Of a stretch of DNA of 34,611 nucleotides, positions 1 through 6,707 are shown one piece after another; within the stretch, counting starts at the first letter, position 1, and each line of letters opens with the position of its first letter. A program made the position numbers and the translations under genes. Under the pieces are notes generated by a model, which made no database searches, had not been told where the DNA came from, and worked only from the letters and a program-made list of their open reading frames with translations. Source of the stretch: a virus; the UHGV virus genome UHGV-0165227. One strand, written 5' to 3'.

Positions 1-247
1 CTCGAAGGGCTTGCTTAATTGACATAACAACTTTTTCAGAAGTTGTCTTGTTTGATTTTTGAACTACGAAAATTTCGTAGTGCTCACCTTCAAGTTCATC
101 CTTAATGCGTGCAATAAAGTCGTTATTGCGGACTTCTTTTTCCCCGCACTGTCTACGAGCATGATTGACCATCTCTAACAGGTACTGGCTATCAATGGTT
201 TTATCCGTGACAACGGATCCGATGTTTGCTACATTCTTAAAAGTCAT
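1..247 (-). CDS. Hypothetical phage protein, N-terminal 82 codons only (continues past left edge); not a tailspike N-terminus
   Basis: ATG at 247..245 with AAGGAA RBS 7 nt upstream; open frame to position 1; no P22/Sf6 tailspike head-binding motif. Confidence 0.35.
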   Translation of the reverse strand, partial: MTFKNVANIGSVVTDKTIDSQYLLEMVNHARRQCGEKEVRNNDFIARIKDELEGEHYEIFVVQKSNKTTSEKVVMSIKQALR

Positions 248-285
248 TAGGCATTCCTTATGTGGTAGTAAGGGTGTGACATAGG

Positions 286-316
286 CCGCCAGCAGCACAC
301 TGGCGGTTTTCTTTTT
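286..316 (+). terminator. Plus-strand intrinsic terminator facing the 3' end of ant
   Basis: Stem CCGCCAG (286-292) / CTGGCGG (300-306), 7-nt loop, then TTTTCTTTTT (307-316). Confidence 0.5.
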
Positions 317-335
317 GCGCCGTCCGGCGCACCAA

Positions 336-962
336 TCAATGAATCCATTCCTCGCCGCGCAGTTTTGCCAGCATTGGCTGAGCGTTCTTTACGACAAAAT
401 TGTTGGTATCAAGATTCTTCATTTCACGAAGAAGTGATTTCTTGGTTTCTTCTGACATGTAGCGAGTCTCATATGCAATATCGTAAATCCTTCCTGAAAG
501 CTCAGAACCAATTTGCTTCATTCCTGGGTAGATGTGTTTGCACATTTGTTGACTCTTCTCCATCCACAATTGTAAGTAGCAGAGATTAACCAGTTCTTCG
601 TCAGTAAACTGTTTTGCAATCGGTGAGCATTCTGCCTGCCGATCCAAAATATCCAGCACCCAGCGGCGGAACTCTTTGGCTACCTGAGTGCGAGCAAACA
701 TCGCGATTAGGTGGGCACCGCGTAGTGAGAAAACACGCACTTTTTTGCGATAATTTCCTGAGGTACTCACTTCGAGTACCTGAGTCATTCCGGCGCTAAA
801 CTCATCGCTATACTTGTTATAAATCATTGTTACTGCACGACTATTTGCGTATTTAAGTGCAGATGCAATATTAGATGATGTAAACCAAACACCATGCATA
901 TCACGGGTGGGCACCAATTCAACTCCGTGGAAGTTATAATCTGATTTTGCTACAATATTCAT
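336..962 (-). CDS. ant: Antirepressor Ant (Bro-N/AntA-type N-terminal domain)
   Basis: Immediately downstream of arc on the same strand; AAGGAAA RBS before ATG at 962; Bro-N-like N-terminal pattern; upstream in-frame part of the track ORF lacks an RBS. Confidence 0.6.
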   Translation of the reverse strand: MNIVAKSDYNFHGVELVPTRDMHGVWFTSSNIASALKYANSRAVTMIYNKYSDEFSAGMTQVLEVSTSGNYRKKVRVFSLRGAHLIAMFARTQVAKEFRRWVLDILDRQAECSPIAKQFTDEELVNLCYLQLWMEKSQQMCKHIYPGMKQIGSELSGRIYDIAYETRYMSEETKKSLLREMKNLDTNNFVVKNAQPMLAKLRGEEWIH

Positions 963-1037
963 GTTAGTTTCCTTGCATACGGTTACTGACATAGAGGCCC
1001 GGTTTGTGTTCACGCACTGCCGGGCTTCACTATTTTT
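948..1037 (+). ncRNA. Candidate sar-like antisense RNA covering the ant ribosome-binding site
   Basis: Extended -10 TGCTACAAT (948-956) inside ant 5' end on the opposite strand; hairpin GCCCGG (997-1002) / CCGGGC (1020-1025) followed by U-rich tract 1026-1037. Confidence 0.35.
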
Positions 1038-1209
1038 ACTGGGCATTAGCTCTTTCCTCTCTCAGGCTTTTAGCCAGTCGCTGCACAATCGCAGAGTTGA
1101 TAGAAATTCCATCCATTTCAGCAACACGTCTAATCTCCTCCTTCATTCGCGCTGGCAAACGAAGCTGGAAACTTTGACTTTTACGACCTGTGTAAAGCAC
1201 ATCTTTCAT
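1036..1209 (-). CDS. arc: Arc-like ribbon-helix-helix repressor
   Basis: GGAGG RBS before ATG at 1209; N-terminal beta-strand plus helices motif typical of Arc/MetJ family; directly upstream of ant. Confidence 0.65.
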   Translation of the reverse strand: MKDVLYTGRKSQSFQLRLPARMKEEIRRVAEMDGISINSAIVQRLAKSLREERANAQ

Positions 1210-1237
1210 AAGTAATCCTCCCACAATGATACCAACT

Positions 1238-1251
1238 TGGTTCTAGAACCA
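1238..1251. promoter_or_regulatory. Perfect 14-bp palindrome TGGTTCTAGAACCA in the arc-mnt divergent control region; candidate operator
   Basis: Exact self-complementary 14-mer between divergent arc (start 1209) and mnt (start 1321); flanking CCAACTTGG / CAAGTTGG inverted repeat. Confidence 0.55.
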
Positions 1252-1320
1252 ATTTAACACCATTTATTTTGATGTCAAGTTGGTGCTATTGTTTAGCGAA
1301 CATCTTTACGTTGAGGTCAT

Positions 1321-1641
1321 ATGAGCAAGTTCCCTAGTCATGAAATGGATAGGTTCAATATCAGGCTTCCTGCAGGAATGCGGGATGCTATAGCTGAACG
1401 AGCCAAACGTAACGGCAGATCAATGAACTCAGAGATTGTTCAGATACTGGAAGATGCCTTGAATGCAGAAAATACACTCGGGGAAATAGCAGATAAAATC
1501 AACAGCGTCTCGGTTCCGCTAAATGTTGATGCGCTAGTTCAACTTCAAGCCCAGGTTATCGCCATGCAAAAAGAAATACAGGAAAAGTTCAGAGAGCAGA
1601 ACGAAAAGTTGAGAGAACTGCTAAACAAAAAAACCACCTGA
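1321..1641 (+). CDS. mnt: Mnt-like ribbon-helix-helix repressor
   Basis: N-terminal FNIRLP...RNGRSMNSEIVQ motif matches P22 Mnt/Arc family; GAGGT RBS; divergent from arc-ant. Confidence 0.75.
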   Translation: MSKFPSHEMDRFNIRLPAGMRDAIAERAKRNGRSMNSEIVQILEDALNAENTLGEIADKINSVSVPLNVDALVQLQAQVIAMQKEIQEKFREQNEKLRELLNKKTT

Positions 1642-1668
1642 CGGTGGGTTAATTTTTGCCTTTTTTGG
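1634..1668 (+). terminator. Weak intrinsic terminator after mnt
   Basis: CCACC-TGAC-GGTGG hairpin overlapping mnt stop, followed by interrupted T-rich tract. Confidence 0.35.
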
Positions 1669-1739
1669 ACCATATTGACTACTCATAAAATGAGATCAAT
1701 ATTTAATCGCCCAATAACGGGTGCATGTTGAGGTATATC

Positions 1740-1919
1740 ATGGCGAAAAAACCAGGTGAAAACACAGGAAAAAACGGCGGAATATACCAAGAAGTTGGCC
1801 CGCGCGGAGGTAAGAAAGACAATTTTGCCACCGTCAAGGACAACGAAAGGCTTCCGCCAACAACAAAGCCAGGTCATGGCTGGGTATTAGATAAGCGAAC
1901 TCCAGACAGCAAAAAGTAA
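1740..1919 (+). CDS. Small YjzC-like protein (function unknown)
   Basis: GAGG RBS 6 nt before ATG at 1740; KPGENTGKNGGIYQEVGPRGG pattern resembles the YjzC-like small-protein family; same strand as mnt. Confidence 0.45.
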   Translation: MAKKPGENTGKNGGIYQEVGPRGGKKDNFATVKDNERLPPTTKPGHGWVLDKRTPDSKK

Positions 1920-1925
1920 TAATCA

Positions 1926-1948
1926 AGCCGGGTCACTCCGGCTTTTTG
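1926..1948 (+). terminator. Intrinsic terminator after the YjzC-like gene
   Basis: AGCCGG (1926-1931) / CCGGCT (1938-1943), 6-nt loop, TTTTT (1944-1948); overlaps stop of the convergent minus-strand gene. Confidence 0.6.
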
Positions 1949-2298
1949 ATATGTCGCTCGCAGAACTCAACAAGCCTGCTCATTAAGTAGCAGTAAGTCT
2001 CGTTGGCTCTTCCTGGTTCAACATCAACGCCGACCCTTGAGCAGATATCGAATGCCATGTGAGCGCACTCATGGGCAATAGTAGATAGTTTGCCATTGAA
2101 CACACCTATCACATGCAAAACACCATTCTCGCTGCTCATTGTATGAGACGCTCCGTTGGCATCCGAGTCCTGCACGTCCACGCCAAGTTTTTGATGCAGG
2201 CGTTGCCATTCTGGAAAGTCTCTGCAAAACACAATTGTACCGCTCTCAAAGAGCGGAACGAGCATTTTTGGTACGTTTCCAATGTTAACTTTTTTCAT
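1933..2298 (-). CDS. Small HExxH-motif protein, candidate minimal zinc metallopeptidase
   Basis: 121-aa ORF with HECAH (HExxH) and downstream Glu residues; AGGA RBS; lies where P22 carries sieA. Confidence 0.45.
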   Translation of the reverse strand: MKKVNIGNVPKMLVPLFESGTIVFCRDFPEWQRLHQKLGVDVQDSDANGASHTMSSENGVLHVIGVFNGKLSTIAHECAHMAFDICSRVGVDVEPGRANETYCYLMSRLVEFCERHIKKPE

Positions 2299-2328
2299 GG
2301 TATCCTGCTCAAAACTAAGGAGGTTGGT

Positions 2329-2556
2329 GTGAAGCGATGGTTCCTCATAATTACTGTTTTCGCGATCATTTACACTATTTTCCCTGCATTAAAAGCACCA
2401 ATGCAAATAATTTCGCTAGCAATAATTGCAATTGGTGCTTTCATTGCAGTAGCCGTACTTGTGTTTAAGGTTTTAAAGTTTTTAGTTTGGCTATCAAAAG
2501 ATGATGGATGCAAAGTTCATCAAGAAAAAGAAGGCAAAATAACCAAAGTTGACTAA
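2329..2556 (+). CDS. Small two-helix membrane protein (75 aa), GTG start
   Basis: Strong RBS TAAGGAGGT (2316-2324) 4 nt before GTG 2329; two hydrophobic segments; AT-rich; convergent with gp16. Confidence 0.4.
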   Translation: MKRWFLIITVFAIIYTIFPALKAPMQIISLAIIAIGAFIAVAVLVFKVLKFLVWLSKDDGCKVHQEKEGKITKVD

Positions 2557-4676
2557 CTGTCACTAGCGAGCCATGTAATAATCCCCGTGCGGGCAATGGT
2601 TTTTGCTTCATCTGTTGATAAGGTTTTCTCCCATCTCTTAAATGCCCCAGATTGCATCAGTTTCCTTTCTATTACGCGTCTCACTTCTGCTCTGTCTACT
2701 GGTGCGTTTTGCAGGCGAAATAGCATTGATTTAAACTCAGGAGAAGACAGTAGAGCATCAGCAGCCTTTATCCTGCTTGTTTTCCCTGACATCAATGCTG
2801 ACGTTATCACCCCTGTTGCACCTACACCAGGAAGACCAGATAAGCTTGTAATACCTTCCGCCGCAGCAGCTTTTGAGGCTATTCCATAAATTTTTGCGAG
2901 ACTACCCTTTTCTTTCAGAAAGTTATTAACTTGCTGATCCACAAGGCTGCTAGCATACTGCTTACCAGTATTGAGTCTATTCATAGCCTTGGCTGCTTGA
3001 TAAATCGTATCAAGGCGCTTTGATGCATCTGTGCCAATAGCATCACGGAGAGCCTTCATATTGGCCCCATTGCGTGACATTCCGTTATACCATTTTACAA
3101 ATCCATCAACCCCTAATTGCTGGCCTGGTGATTTAGCATAGCTGGTAAATGCTTTATTCATTGAGGTGAGCGCAACTTCCTGCCGCATATCCTTTGGAAT
3201 TGACTTCATTAATTGCCTAAAGTCACCACCGTTTCCTTTTGCCATATTAACAACGGCACTTTCAACTTTTGGAATTGCTGATTGCTGAAGTTTTCTACCC
3301 AAAACGGTTACGGCATCATCTTCAATGGATTTTCGTGTTTTTACCAACTCCTTACCAAGCGTCCATAACTCCCCTGCGCCATATTTTTCTGCGACAGCCT
3401 GTTGGTCATCTGTTATAGCCGCATATAACTTTTTAAGAACACCTGTTTCTTCATCCTTGAATGGGCCAGAGCCTTTGCCAATAGCTTGCCCAACCTGCTT
3501 TCTAGCGAGATCTAAACGCCCATACGTTGGCAAGGTGTTTGGATCAAGTCGGTTCAATGTCCGCTTCATTATTGGAGATAATTCATCAATTCCACCTATA
3601 TCATCAGCAAAATCCTCTAAAAAATTCAATGTATTAGTTGCCTCAATCCGGTCTCTTACAGGAACCTTTTCGGCAATTTTGTTGTAGATGTTATCTGACT
3701 GATTTTGTAATGATGAAATGGTTTTATCAAAATTATCTGCAAGCCTGTCAGAAACCAGTTGCTTATCAAGGCTTCCCCCAAATGAAGTTATCATTTCATC
3801 AGCTTTTCTTCCTAATTCAGTAATAAAACGCTTATGCGCCTCACTAATCTCTGTTCCAGGGAGACTTGCCACTGCATTATCAAGAGCCCTGACAGCAGGA
3901 TTATTAGAGATCATGCCTGGAGTGGCATAATTTTCCAGTTCTAGCTCACGAATAGCATTTATCGCGTTAAAATCAGGATTAACTTCATCGGCGAAATCTT
4001 GAATAGCTCGTTGCCCGCCGATAAATTTATTGTCCATTGCGCCAGCAGCTTTCTTTAACGTTGCTTTAGATGATTTACTACCCATCCCTACGGATGAGCG
4101 ATAAATATCTCCGGCACTATTTTTAATTTTTCCTGCAATCTTCCCAAGCGCTGGACCAACAATCTCTGCTACAGGGCCAGCCACAGCGCCAATAGCAGCT
4201 CCAGAAGCAACATCGCTATTTGTTCCATTGGCTACAATAGCCCCTTCTCCAGCACCAAGCCCTGCGGCGGCAGCCAGCCTTGCCGCCCCTTTCGGAACCT
4301 GAGAAATAATCCCACCACCACTAACAAATGGCGCTGCTTGTCCAACAAACTCACCAACATCTTGTGCGGTTGATGGTTTTGCCGCTAACTTCTGCTGTAG
4401 AGACTGAATTGCGGCTTGCTCTTCTGGTGTCATATCCTGAAACAGGCCAACACCTTTACCAACATCCATCAATCCACTGAGAACGCCATACATAAAACGG
4501 TCGAAACCGTTAGCATTATTAACAACATTTTCCTGTCTGGAATTTTCCTCTGGCGAAACCAAAGGTGATTGCTGCTGTTCTGGTTGGGCATCAAGCACAA
4601 AACCATCAGGAAGCTGTGAGTTATCAGGCTGATTATCGAGAACAAAGCCTTCGGGTAAACCTACATCGGTTGCCAT
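2553..4676 (-). CDS. Ejection (injection) protein, P22 gp16-like
   Basis: Last gene of the ejection-protein trio by synteny (gp7, gp20, gp16); 707 aa, Gly/Ala-rich. Confidence 0.7.
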
Positions 4677-6004
4677 TGTCCGTTCCTGTAAATGAGTTTC
4701 TGACCAGTTTTAGGGTTCGTTGCCGTCGCGCCTTCTGATATCCCACTTGGCGCAGCTTTTGTCTGCCCATTACCACCTTGTGGTGTAGGCTGCGCTGGGA
4801 CATCGTCAAATAGCTTGGCCTTCCTTCTCCCTAAGCTTTTTTTCAGCCCCTGAGGAATAGTATCTCCATACGTATCCAGATATTCGTCTACCTGCTGGTT
4901 AAACTGCTGCCCCATAGCGTTGGCGTTAATTTTTGCTGCGTTAACAATGTTATCCCTCGCTTCCTGTGACAAGCCATTCCCTGCATTAAGCTGGTCTACA
5001 TATCCTTTTATCTGCCCCCATATGCCATCAGAGCGCATGACCTGAACCTGTTCACCTTCGCGAACAACTGACTGAGGGTCGAGAGACTTCATGTAATTAA
5101 AGATAATCCCAAGTTGGGCAGCGCCAGTATTTACCTTGCTAAGGGCTTGCAGAGAGTTTGCCGCCGCTCTGACAGAGTTATAATTTTTGCCAAAATTGGT
5201 AATGTCAGAATTTAATCCCTTAATTAAGTCTGCTGACGGCTTACCTTTTTGCCCCAGCTCCATTAGCTTCAATCCCATCTCATCTGAGTGCATTTGTGCC
5301 CGCTGAGCCCTGTCTAGTTGAGCGTTCTGGATATTTGCCCATCCTCTCGCATTCTCCATGTCAGCCTGACGGATGCTTTCATCCAATCGCCCTTTCTCAA
5401 GTTGGCGACCAACCATCTTATCCTGAACAGCAAACGCCTTTTCTGGTCCAAGCGCACCGAGAGACATAGTAGTCAGCATGTGTGATAGCTGCTCTGGATT
5501 CTGAATACCTGTCTGAATCATCCAGTCAGCATTCGCCCCCACGCGATTTAACCTGTCCTTGTTGTCAGTAATGAATTTACTGTAGGCTTCCGGTCCCTGA
5601 GAAAGAGCGACGTTAGCCCTCATGGCTAAATCGCCCATATCGTTGCGTTGCTGATCATTAAGACCGGAAAACGCCTGTTGTGCCTGTGCAACAAACGCTG
5701 GATTTTCCTGGGCAAACTTAAATAGTCCCGATGGATCACCAGAAGCCCATGCATCAGCGTGAACCTTATTGAACGCACTAATAGCTTTCTGTTGCTGTTC
5801 CTGATTGTAAATATCAGCAACTCCAGCCAGACCACGTAACGCGGTCAGGCCAACGTTATTTGCACCTGAGCGAGCCAGTTCATTGTTTTCGCGGATCATA
5901 CCAAGCGTTGCGTTAATGTCGCTTGCCTTTGGCGCATTCTCATTTTGCGTACCGATGCCAGCCAGAAAACCACCAGAATTAATACCCTGTTGCCACGTAG
6001 CCAT
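4661..6004 (-). CDS. Ejection protein, P22 gp20-like
   Basis: Synteny and length (447 aa) consistent with P22 gp20. Confidence 0.75.
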
Positions 6005-6014
6005 TGATTACCCC

Positions 6015-6707
6015 TTAAAACAACGAGCCAAGCAGACCAAGACCGCCGCCGATCGCAGCCCCCCACGGAGTTGATGAACCAATTAATTTCGCAAGTCCGG
6101 CCCCAGCAATAGCACCAGACGCACCTCCGCCAATAGCAGATTGCATTGCTGATGGTCTGTTGGCATTTGCCGCTGCAAGAGCCGCACTTTGCTGCGAAAT
6201 CTGACTCATGTTGTTGGCATATGTTTGCCCGGCGTTTGCCTGCCCCTGAAGAGCGCCAAGACCGATATTTGCCAGGTTGTTGTAATTGTTCATTTGTCCA
6301 GATAGCCATTGCTGACCTAGCGTTGGTGCGATTGTTGCTAACTGATTACTGGTTGCGGTGGAACCTAATCCACCTGTTGCTTCCGCTGCCGCCAGACTCT
6401 GATAACGAGCCTGACCAGCAAGATCTTTGTACTGCTGAGAGTTGTAATACTGGTTAAGTGCCTGACCTTGCCCTTCCAGAGACGATAAGTTCTCGAGGCT
6501 GCCGACATACTTATCAGCCAGAGGAGTAAACGGCTTCAGGTTGTTCATGATGGTGTTGAACTGCTGATTTTGCAGGTCTGCTGCATACTTCTGAGCTTCT
6601 GCGGCATACTTTGCGCTTTTATCAGAACTGCCACCTTTCCCGCCTTTTTCAGGGCAATAAGGTTCCTCGCCGCGCAGTTTTCTGCCCAGCTTAAATGCAT
6701 ATAACAT
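6015..6707 (-). CDS. Ejection protein, P22 gp7-like
   Basis: 230 aa; sequence recalled as near-identical to P22 gp7; Gly-rich C-terminus. Confidence 0.8.
   Translation of the reverse strand: MLYAFKLGRKLRGEEPYCPEKGGKGGSSDKSAKYAAEAQKYAADLQNQQFNTIMNNLKPFTPLADKYVGSLENLSSLEGQGQALNQYYNSQQYKDLAGQARYQSLAAAEATGGLGSTATSNQLATIAPTLGQQWLSGQMNNYNNLANIGLGALQGQANAGQTYANNMSQISQQSAALAAANANRPSAMQSAIGGGASGAIAGAGLAKLIGSSTPWGAAIGGGLGLLGSLF

Follow-up and report, generated by a model that had tools for sequence, protein, structure and literature searches.

Which genes stand between gene 16 and mnt of a P22-like prophage, at the place where P22 itself carries sieA, and did they arrive there together? The question is raised by UHGV virus genome UHGV-0165227, a stretch of 34,611 nucleotides (nt) that was analyzed at its full length and is called the window below. 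It is an Escherichia coli prophage of the P22-like (Lederbergvirus) type, with its late genes on the minus strand. A sequence-only reading had placed three small genes between gp16 and mnt and regarded them as one AT-rich, separately acquired accessory cluster in the position of sieA. Three open reading frames (ORFs) are indeed found there, but they are three separate transcription units on alternating strands, neither an operon nor a single island. As read straight from the alignments, the structure is mosaic, with two overlapping modules, and the region is an accessory segment, the "ant moron", already known from P22-like phages, in which gene 16 and gene 9 flank it. The explanation that we consider probable as a whole is a two-module ant moron with three units, in which a protein of 75 amino acids (aa) would serve as an exclusion-type factor, HkcC as a peptidase, and orf59a as a moron. 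The ORFs, the modules, and the block in which the modules overlap are as follows (window coordinates).

1740–1919, plus strand: orf59a (orf59a of P22, HkcD of HK620), 59 aa, YjzC family; 98.3% aa identity to P22 orf59a, phrog_3202
1933–2298, minus strand: hkcC, 121 aa, with an HExxH motif; 100% aa identity to HK620 HkcC and to a P22 ORF
2329–2556, plus strand: gene of a 75-aa protein with two predicted transmembrane (TM) segments, GTG start, in the sieA slot; phrog_7294, WP_000832789
1625–2331: module A, orf59a and hkcC; DNA identity of 97.3–97.6% to P22, SE1, and HK620 (megablast/blastn)
2298–6044: module B, comprising gp16, gp20, and the 75-aa gene; E. coli phages E212 and EC.P3 match it at 91% identity (blastn)
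2298–2331, plus strand: conserved junction block of 34 nt, here called the socket, with TGgTATCCT, AAGGAGG, and the GTG start (alignment)

Two mosaic modules at the gene 16 junction

Window segment 1625–2331 corresponds to P22 13828–14535 at 97.5% DNA identity, and SE1 and HK620 are equally close; modules A and B overlap within 2298–2331. The identity with P22 ends at 2331, the last base of a GTG codon common to both phages. Hence, the 75-aa gene alone replaces sieA, and the earlier placement of the cluster "where P22 carries sieA" holds only for 2329–2556, whereas orf59a and hkcC lie beside sieA in P22 itself. In the corresponding P22 region, sieA, hkcC, and 59a have been named before (PMC2629481).

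HK620 (annotation of Clark et al., 2001; AF335538) has the same succession of gene 16, an opposite-strand slot gene, hkcC, a bidirectional terminator, and an orf59a homolog, the proteins HkcC and HkcD being 100% and 98% identical to their window counterparts, respectively. It differs from the window in that the slot holds hkcB, which encodes a 109-aa N-anchored coiled-coil protein instead of the 75-aa two-TM protein, and in that mnt and ant are present only as remnants. No gene was found in Sf6 between the gp16 homolog and the tailspike gene, and the CUS-3 junction contains hkcB, two other genes, two mnt genes, and ant, with neither hkcC nor orf59a. The accessory character of the region is thus upheld, with nothing in Sf6 and other genes in CUS-3, but a single acquisition of three genes is not.

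The GC content of 1650–2560 is 42.7%, compared with 46.75% for the window, and lies at the 9.6th percentile among windows of the same size, so that AT-richness of the cluster as a whole was not borne out. The values for orf59a and hkcC are 47.2 and 47.0%, and those for gp16 and the left flank (1–1649) are 44.0 and 43.2%, respectively. The 75-aa gene alone is an outlier (34.6%, 0.4th percentile), and its GC content at third codon positions, 0.29, is near that of gp16, 0.33. For two of the three genes, orf59a and hkcC, both synteny in characterized P22-like phages and a flank-like composition were observed. One AT-rich island acquired in place of sieA is accordingly very improbable: the absence of the region from Sf6, the strong AT-richness of the 75-aa gene, and a GC content of the whole span slightly below the mean would fit it, but it is already refuted for orf59a and hkcC by their location next to sieA in P22 and their GC content of 47%, equal to the window mean, and the two modules have different relatives, with alternating strands and separate signals.

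In the comparison of the window with P22, hkcC has five synonymous and no non-synonymous differences, and orf59a has three and one, respectively, where approximately 21% synonymous would be expected for random changes. This excess of synonymous differences indicates that both are real genes and not chance ORFs. The 75-aa ORF is also regarded as a real gene, since over 1100 blocks of an assembly collection list its product. PADLOC and NCBIfam gave no match for any of the three proteins, and Pfam gave none for the 121-aa or the 75-aa protein. Three E. coli chromosomes are 100% identical to the window over 1200–2800, and strain 55989 is 99.4% identical; in these chromosomes, the Prokaryotic Genome Annotation Pipeline (PGAP) labels all three small ORFs as hypothetical proteins.

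The region and two of its genes are already known, without function, from the HK620, P22, and epsilon34 genome papers, and the third is a common hypothetical gene of E. coli and Salmonella prophages. What is new is the placement of the 75-aa protein among many alternative occupants of the sieA socket, the definition of the conserved 34-nt block, and the recognition of HkcC, by its sequence pattern, as a mini-zincin family. The overall importance of the finding is small; it is an ordinary one with a few usable leads.

The sieA slot and its 75-aa protein

The socket is the start point of P22 sieA, of HK620 hkcB, and of the 75-aa gene. In the alignment, P22, SE1, HK620, E212, and the window are the same through AAGGAGGTTGGyGTG and diverge right after it, and in CUS-3, ACTAAGGGGGTTGGTGTG precedes hkcB. 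The AAGGAGG is situated at 2317–2323, 5 nt upstream of the GTG, in agreement with the very strong ribosome-binding site (RBS) previously attributed to the 75-aa gene.

A search with a 24-nt junction key yielded 92 IMG/VR stretches, which together with the window and loci fetched earlier gave 96 loci. The ORFs starting from the socket GTG in these loci belong to at least 11 unrelated families of 62–149 aa. The proteins of ten families either begin with an anchor or a signal-like segment or contain several TM segments, and those of one family appear to be cytoplasmic; family C7, one of the ten, fell below the hydropathy cut-off, and its signal peptide was called by reading the N-terminus directly. 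No function is recorded for any of these at least 11 families. Counted from the GTG, positions -31 to +2 show a conservation of at least 90% across 70 distinct segments, ahead of which 11 sequence classes occur, with the caveat that the search key covers 24 of the 34 nt of the block and the independent evidence consists of the 10 nt upstream of the key. These small envelope proteins, at least 11 in number and all preceded by one conserved start block, provide candidate exclusion factors directed against the gp16/gp20 conduit.

The extended -10-like TGgTATCCT, followed by AAGGAGG and then GTG, suggests that the socket, besides marking a recombination boundary, may act as a portable site of expression. 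The putative P22 promoter PsieA maps to window positions 2268–2298, and in P22 it lies within the first codons of hkcC. For P22, a segment of 85 bp preceding sieA has been reported to be sufficient for exclusion (Leavitt et al., 2024; PMC10883804), and the window differs little from P22 in this segment. The lambdoid bsq boundary sequences of HK620 and CUS-3 are similarly short conserved junction blocks with many alternative flanks on both sides. In contrast to them, the socket contains a Shine-Dalgarno (SD) sequence and a start codon, possibly with an extended -10 element; hence, it could express any gene that is recombined into it. The kind of cassette follows the C-terminal type of gp16, and the 75-aa gene was next to one and the same type at all 15 loci with this gene and at five of five further places.

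The 75-aa protein has two hydrophobic segments (about residues 3–22 and 23–56) with LKAP between them and a Lys-rich C-terminal tail, consistent with its initial description as a membrane protein. Its homologs are restricted to E. coli and Salmonella and are at least 85% identical; residues 19–75 are almost invariant among alleles, and the three nucleotide differences in this part are all synonymous. With an ATG and an RBS of its own, the commonest allele comes last in a same-strand array that starts with mnt and continues with genes for 92, 186, and 75 aa, an arrangement that fits expression from the prophage side. The window allele departs from the commonest one almost only in the first 57 nt, as if its 5' end were recombinant and had been joined to the P22-type block, and its 3' end overlaps the gp16 stop codon by 4 nt. 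An extended version of 147 aa with an ATG start (2113–2556) was rejected, as the SD-preceded GTG is shared with P22 sieA and is the start chosen by PGAP. The gene also contains an imperfect inverted repeat, which is invariant among the alleles.

2384–2412 and 2421–2449: arms of the imperfect inverted repeat inside the 75-aa gene, 29 nt each, 79% complementary

As RNA, the repeat folds with a z-score of -4.6 on the plus strand and of -5.3 on the minus strand, i.e., that of the late transcript (-30 kcal/mol).

By analogy, we tentatively predict that the most likely role of the 75-aa protein is in exclusion, as a factor expressed by the prophage and directed at the conduit for DNA delivery. The protein would be made in the lysogen, would insert into the inner membrane, its N- and C-termini both facing the cytoplasm, as its hydropathy suggests, and could interfere with the gp16/gp20 conduit of incoming P22-like phages in the fashion of SieA, without sequence kinship to it. 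This role is taken as the likeliest because of the position of the gene, its expression side, the membrane character of the product, and two precedents, SieA and BTP1.

The 75-aa gene has in common with P22 sieA the slot between gene 16 and gene 9, the strand opposite to the late operon, the RBS, the GTG, and the upstream DNA. Both products are small hydrophobic proteins, the inner-membrane location being shown experimentally for SieA and predicted by hydropathy only for the 75-aa protein. On the other hand, SieA proteins of types A–C have at least 164 aa and at least three TM segments, compared with two predicted ones here, and sieA is missing from approximately two-thirds of sequenced P22-like phages (Leavitt et al., 2024; PMC10883804). 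For BTP1, a transcript made in the lysogen from the same junction has been reported to cause BTP1-specific exclusion, and escape changes map to the 3' end of gp16 (Owen et al., 2020; PMC7067206). This transcript, STnc6030, resembles the predicted situation in its expression from the prophage, its location at the gp16/tailspike junction, its antisense orientation to the gp16 3' end, and phage-specific exclusion. It differs in being described as a non-coding RNA, and BTP1 is without the ant moron and without any of the three genes. The closest functional analog that we can name for the proposed role is Imm of phage T4, an inner-membrane protein of about 80 aa with two hydrophobic segments that blocks the entry of phage DNA; it is the product of an early gene of a lytic phage, and its genomic setting is unrelated.

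In a wider version of this proposal, the junction as a whole is a hypervariable "DNA-entry defense" socket with at least 12 swappable, unrelated small envelope proteins, each inherited with a particular gp16 C-terminus. The 75-aa protein would then be a SieA-unrelated, T4 Imm-like injection blocker, and hkcC and orf59a would form a mobile module of a mini-zincin and a YjzC-like protein with coupled function. Taken in full, this version is possible but doubtful.

Several observations weigh against the exclusion role and the explanation built on it. No homology or experiment ties the 75-aa protein to exclusion. It has no similarity to SieA or HkcB (the best BLASTP match to SieA had an E-value of 0.16 over 26 hydrophobic residues), the SieA motif FxRYPxEAxxFNK is absent from its sequence, and PADLOC, Pfam, and NCBIfam yielded nothing for it. 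Its AlphaFold2 (AF2) model, a single long helix with a predicted template modeling score (pTM) of 0.36, was uninformative and was set aside, leaving the topology to be read from hydropathy alone. A two-hexamer sigma-70 scan gave no site at the socket, where the promoter is thus putative. The association between cassette and gp16 type may reflect mere physical linkage, since gp16 type G1 goes with three different cassettes; a rule of one cassette per gp16 type was rejected for the same reason. Finally, no function was found recorded for Orf59a or the YjzC family.

An alternative is that the active product of the slot is an RNA. A socket transcript running through the 75-aa ORF and antisense into the 3' end of gp16 would block the matching late mRNA of incoming "self-like" phages, and the ORF would be incidental or part of a dual function. 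STnc6030 of BTP1, which comes from the same junction and is escaped by single-nucleotide polymorphisms (SNPs) in the gp16 3' end (PMC7067206), is a precedent for such a mechanism. It would also agree with the overlap between the 75-aa gene and gp16, the next terminator-like site of the plus strand being located within gp16 (2760–2777), with the very stable conserved hairpin inside the gene, and with the tight co-inheritance of the cassette and the gp16 type. However, the near-invariance of residues 19–75 indicates that the ORF is conserved as a protein, and it has a canonical SD and start codon; signal peptides or TM anchors clearly mark the other slot occupants as proteins, and P22 SieA acts as a protein. 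Moreover, the BTP1 case is itself ambiguous between RNA and protein, because the reported escape SNPs also alter residues of gp16. An RNA as the active product therefore seems unlikely to us. Given the protein-coding occupants of the same slot, the "antisense RNA" exclusion of BTP1 could be reconsidered, a peptide or protein mechanism being possible.

At the STnc6030 junction of BTP1, a 23-aa hydrophobic ORF (MERDLLNFVFLIFGLVVGKLLFA) is located on the minus strand, at 14011–14082 of locus L205, and overlaps the gp16 stop codon. The 62-aa slot cassette is not present in BTP1; tblastn found this cassette only in four other phage records, which represent three phages.

It appears improbable that the 75-aa protein, instead of blocking injection, is a membrane effector of the holin or toxin kind, acting for example in abortive infection, as a type I toxin, or in lysis timing. 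Its length, its two TM segments, and its charged C-terminal tail do resemble those of class II holins and small membrane toxins, its gene is antisense to the late transcript and could be regulated in this way, and PADLOC gave a faint match to a "4TM effector" (E 0.05), which is not significant. Against this, the lysis cassette of the prophage already contains its own S-type holin (PF05106, 18191–18514) and Rz, and the 75-aa gene is far from it, unlike a class II holin gene. A strong SD on the prophage-expressed side is hard to square with a lethal product, and neither a partner antitoxin nor a small RNA match was found (Rfam, positions 1–3000). Some other role of the 75-aa protein in lysogenic conversion is a further rival to exclusion.

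HkcC, a candidate minimal zincin

The hkcC gene has the orientation of the late operon and lies downstream of gp16, and the protein would be translated from the late mRNA. The product is 100% identical over 121 aa to HK620 HkcC and equally identical to the product of a P22 ORF at 13861–14223 (2841–3203 of stretch L001, BK000583), which is unannotated in the P22 reference records BK000583 and AB426868. The HExxH motif already noticed in this opposite-strand protein is HECAH, residues 76–80.

An exhaustive profile search (E ≤ 0.001) resulted in 551 clusters, the members of which are mostly stand-alone proteins of 110–140 aa. Among 66 members with 23–44% identity, only G49, H76, E77, H80, and E100 are invariant, i.e., a glycine, the HExxH motif, and a downstream Glu, and on this basis HkcC is assigned to the mini-gluzincins. 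The AF2 model has a predicted local distance difference test (pLDDT) score of 88.4 and a pTM of 0.83, with the order beta-beta-alpha-beta-beta-alpha(HExxH)-alpha(E). The HExxH motif is on helix 71–88, behind a four-strand sheet, and E100 is at the start of the following helix, 100–116. Sequence and model together point to HkcC as a predicted minimal HExxH...E zinc metallopeptidase. The hkcC gene, which the P22 reference annotation omits, is a conserved and selected member of a 551-cluster phage family whose only signature is that of a zinc peptidase.

Fold comparison placed the SprT-like, ImmA/IrrE (M78), and 3e11-type "predicted zincin-like metalloprotease" folds and CapP among the best matches, with weak scores. 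HkcC is like the minimal zincins in having a helix-borne HExxH after a small beta-sheet and a Glu on the next helix approximately 20 residues on, and differs from them as a single 121-aa domain without a helix-turn-helix or other partner domain. At the sequence level, no significant match of HkcC to Pfam and PDB families was found. The SprT-like model PF10263 did not match the window protein and matched one of the 66 family members (E 1e-4), the ImmA/IrrE (peptidase M78) family model gave no significant match, and comparison of HkcC profiles with PDB sequences gave either nothing or only sub-threshold zincin matches. With the HkcC family profile, a sub-threshold match of a strand plus HExxH was observed with an N4-like virion RNA polymerase in PDB (residues about 2187–2235, HELVH region, E 0.2–0.3), possibly by chance. 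The N4 virion RNA polymerase is an ejected protein.

Relatives of HkcC are likewise encoded in late operons: their genes follow the lysis genes in epsilon34 and mEp044, and in siphovirus prophages they precede the tape-measure gene. Orf129/gp70 of epsilon34 (2501–2890 of L099), also present in ST64T, ST104, and L, is a 38–40% identical HkcC paralog, flanked by the lysis genes on one side and the gene of the decoration protein Dec on the other. Since this paralog is situated at a different late-operon site, the mini-zincin seems to have been recruited into P22-like late operons more than once.

orf59a, its pairing with hkcC, and neighboring genes

Orf59a is 98.3% identical not only to its P22 namesake but also to HK620 HkcD, and its neighbors are the same. 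The YjzC-like label given to it earlier is marginal for the protein itself, which scores 19.4 bits (E 0.0013) against PF14168 (YjzC), under the cut-off of 25. The label is supported transitively, via relatives with 49–68% identity that carry PF14168, the close ones being named "YjzC family protein" in UniRef. Orf59a further resembles YjzC in size and in the GxYxExGPRGG...LPPT core. Its homologs are 58–80% identical across Alpha-, Beta-, and Gammaproteobacteria and about 47–57% identical elsewhere. For a protein of 59 aa, Orf59a/YjzC is unusually conserved, mostly with no HkcC alongside (L120–L199). The gene is framed by two signals.

1675–1703, plus strand: promoter-like site for orf59a, TTGACT, 17-nt spacer, AATATT (scan)
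1925–1944, plus strand: intrinsic terminator tORF59A of the orf59a/mnt transcripts, a hairpin followed by TTTTTGAT; annotated in P22 and HK620

Conservation of the -35 and -10 hexamers extends to loci in which the neighbors are wholly different. The terminator folds with -11.9 kcal/mol (z-score -3.5) and overlaps the hkcC stop codon. The three genes had been described as separated by an intrinsic terminator; this is correct between orf59a and hkcC on the plus strand, and the hairpin has no T-run on the minus strand. The promoter-like site and the strong terminator suggest that orf59a is an autonomous moron, transcribed in the direction opposite to the late operon and probably in the lysogenic state. 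Just 3' of the -10 hexamer (about 1704–1726, or more narrowly 1708–1724) is a hairpin with a 4–5-bp stem and the loop CAATAnCG, with homologous sites in L105–L122 and L160. Its stems vary by lineage (CGCCC/GGGTG, GCCG/CGGC, TGCTC/GAGCA, and CTGCA/TGCAG), and the RNAalifold support is weak (-3.7 kcal/mol).

Homologs of orf59a and hkcC are convergent neighbors, 5–22 nt apart, in 12 of 15 looked-up enteric prophage loci. These loci belong to P22-like prophages, to siphovirus prophages, in which the pair separates the tail tube gene from the tape-measure gene, and to Xenorhabdus prophages, in which it follows the lysis genes.

5001–5556 of L105, 5001–5563 of L106, 4001–4526 of L108, 4001–4557 of L110, and 4001–4567 of L111: convergent pair in siphovirus prophages (Rosenbergiella, Klebsiella oxytoca, metagenomes), between tail-tube or YdaY-like and tape-measure genes

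In L111, the pair occurs together with ant- and arc-like genes, and its presence in siphovirus prophages suggests that the ant moron moves between phage morphotypes. Universal pairing was rejected, as HkcC is present in only three of 80 species-level loci with orf59a homologs.

The two genes might form a functionally coupled pair, one mobile two-gene moron in which the zincin cleaves or antagonizes the YjzC-like protein or both have a common target. The close convergent arrangement in diverse prophage types and the terminator common to both genes would be in agreement with this. The low share of species-level loci speaks against it, as do HkcC relatives without adjoining orf59a in epsilon34, ST64T, and the mEp phages, and S. 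bongori prophages that carry orf59a alone. That the 3' end of hkcC contains the terminator may by itself account for the linkage, and we assign coupling a low probability.

Leftward from gp16, the three small ORFs are followed by an mnt-like gene, arc, and ant. The remaining features of the neighborhood are as follows.

1321–1641, plus strand: mnt-like gene of an Arc/Mnt-family repressor, 106 aa (Pfam Arc domain, E 1.6e-20)
1634–1647, plus strand: tMNT of the HK620 annotation, a small hairpin and T-run after mnt (terminator scan)
2553–4676, minus strand: gp16-equivalent ejection protein, 707 aa, of a divergent type (position and weak homology)
4661–6004, minus strand: gp20 (Pfam)
6015–6707, minus strand: gp7 (Pfam)

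Only the last 17 nt of the mnt-like gene, the left neighbor of the three ORFs, lie inside the P22-identical module, which starts at 1625. At the tMNT site, 24 nt are conserved in E212 as well. The 707-aa ORF is assigned to gp16 by its position after gp20 and gp7 and by its weak homology to HK620 gp16 (21% identity, E 2e-7), a level in line with the published values of 22–26% for gp16 proteins compared with one another (PMC10883804).

Rfam gave nothing over positions 1–3000 except for a chance-level match to SymR at the arc/ant junction (E 0.75). At this junction (960–1035, plus strand), a GCCCGG...CCGGGC hairpin precedes a T-rich run; P22 encodes the sar antisense RNA there, and the hairpin may belong to a sar-like antisense RNA. 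Strain SBF22 carries an otherwise identical prophage with an IS3-family element within gp16 (3854–6426 of L006) and with the three small genes intact; because of this insertion, the SBF22 copy is probably defective.

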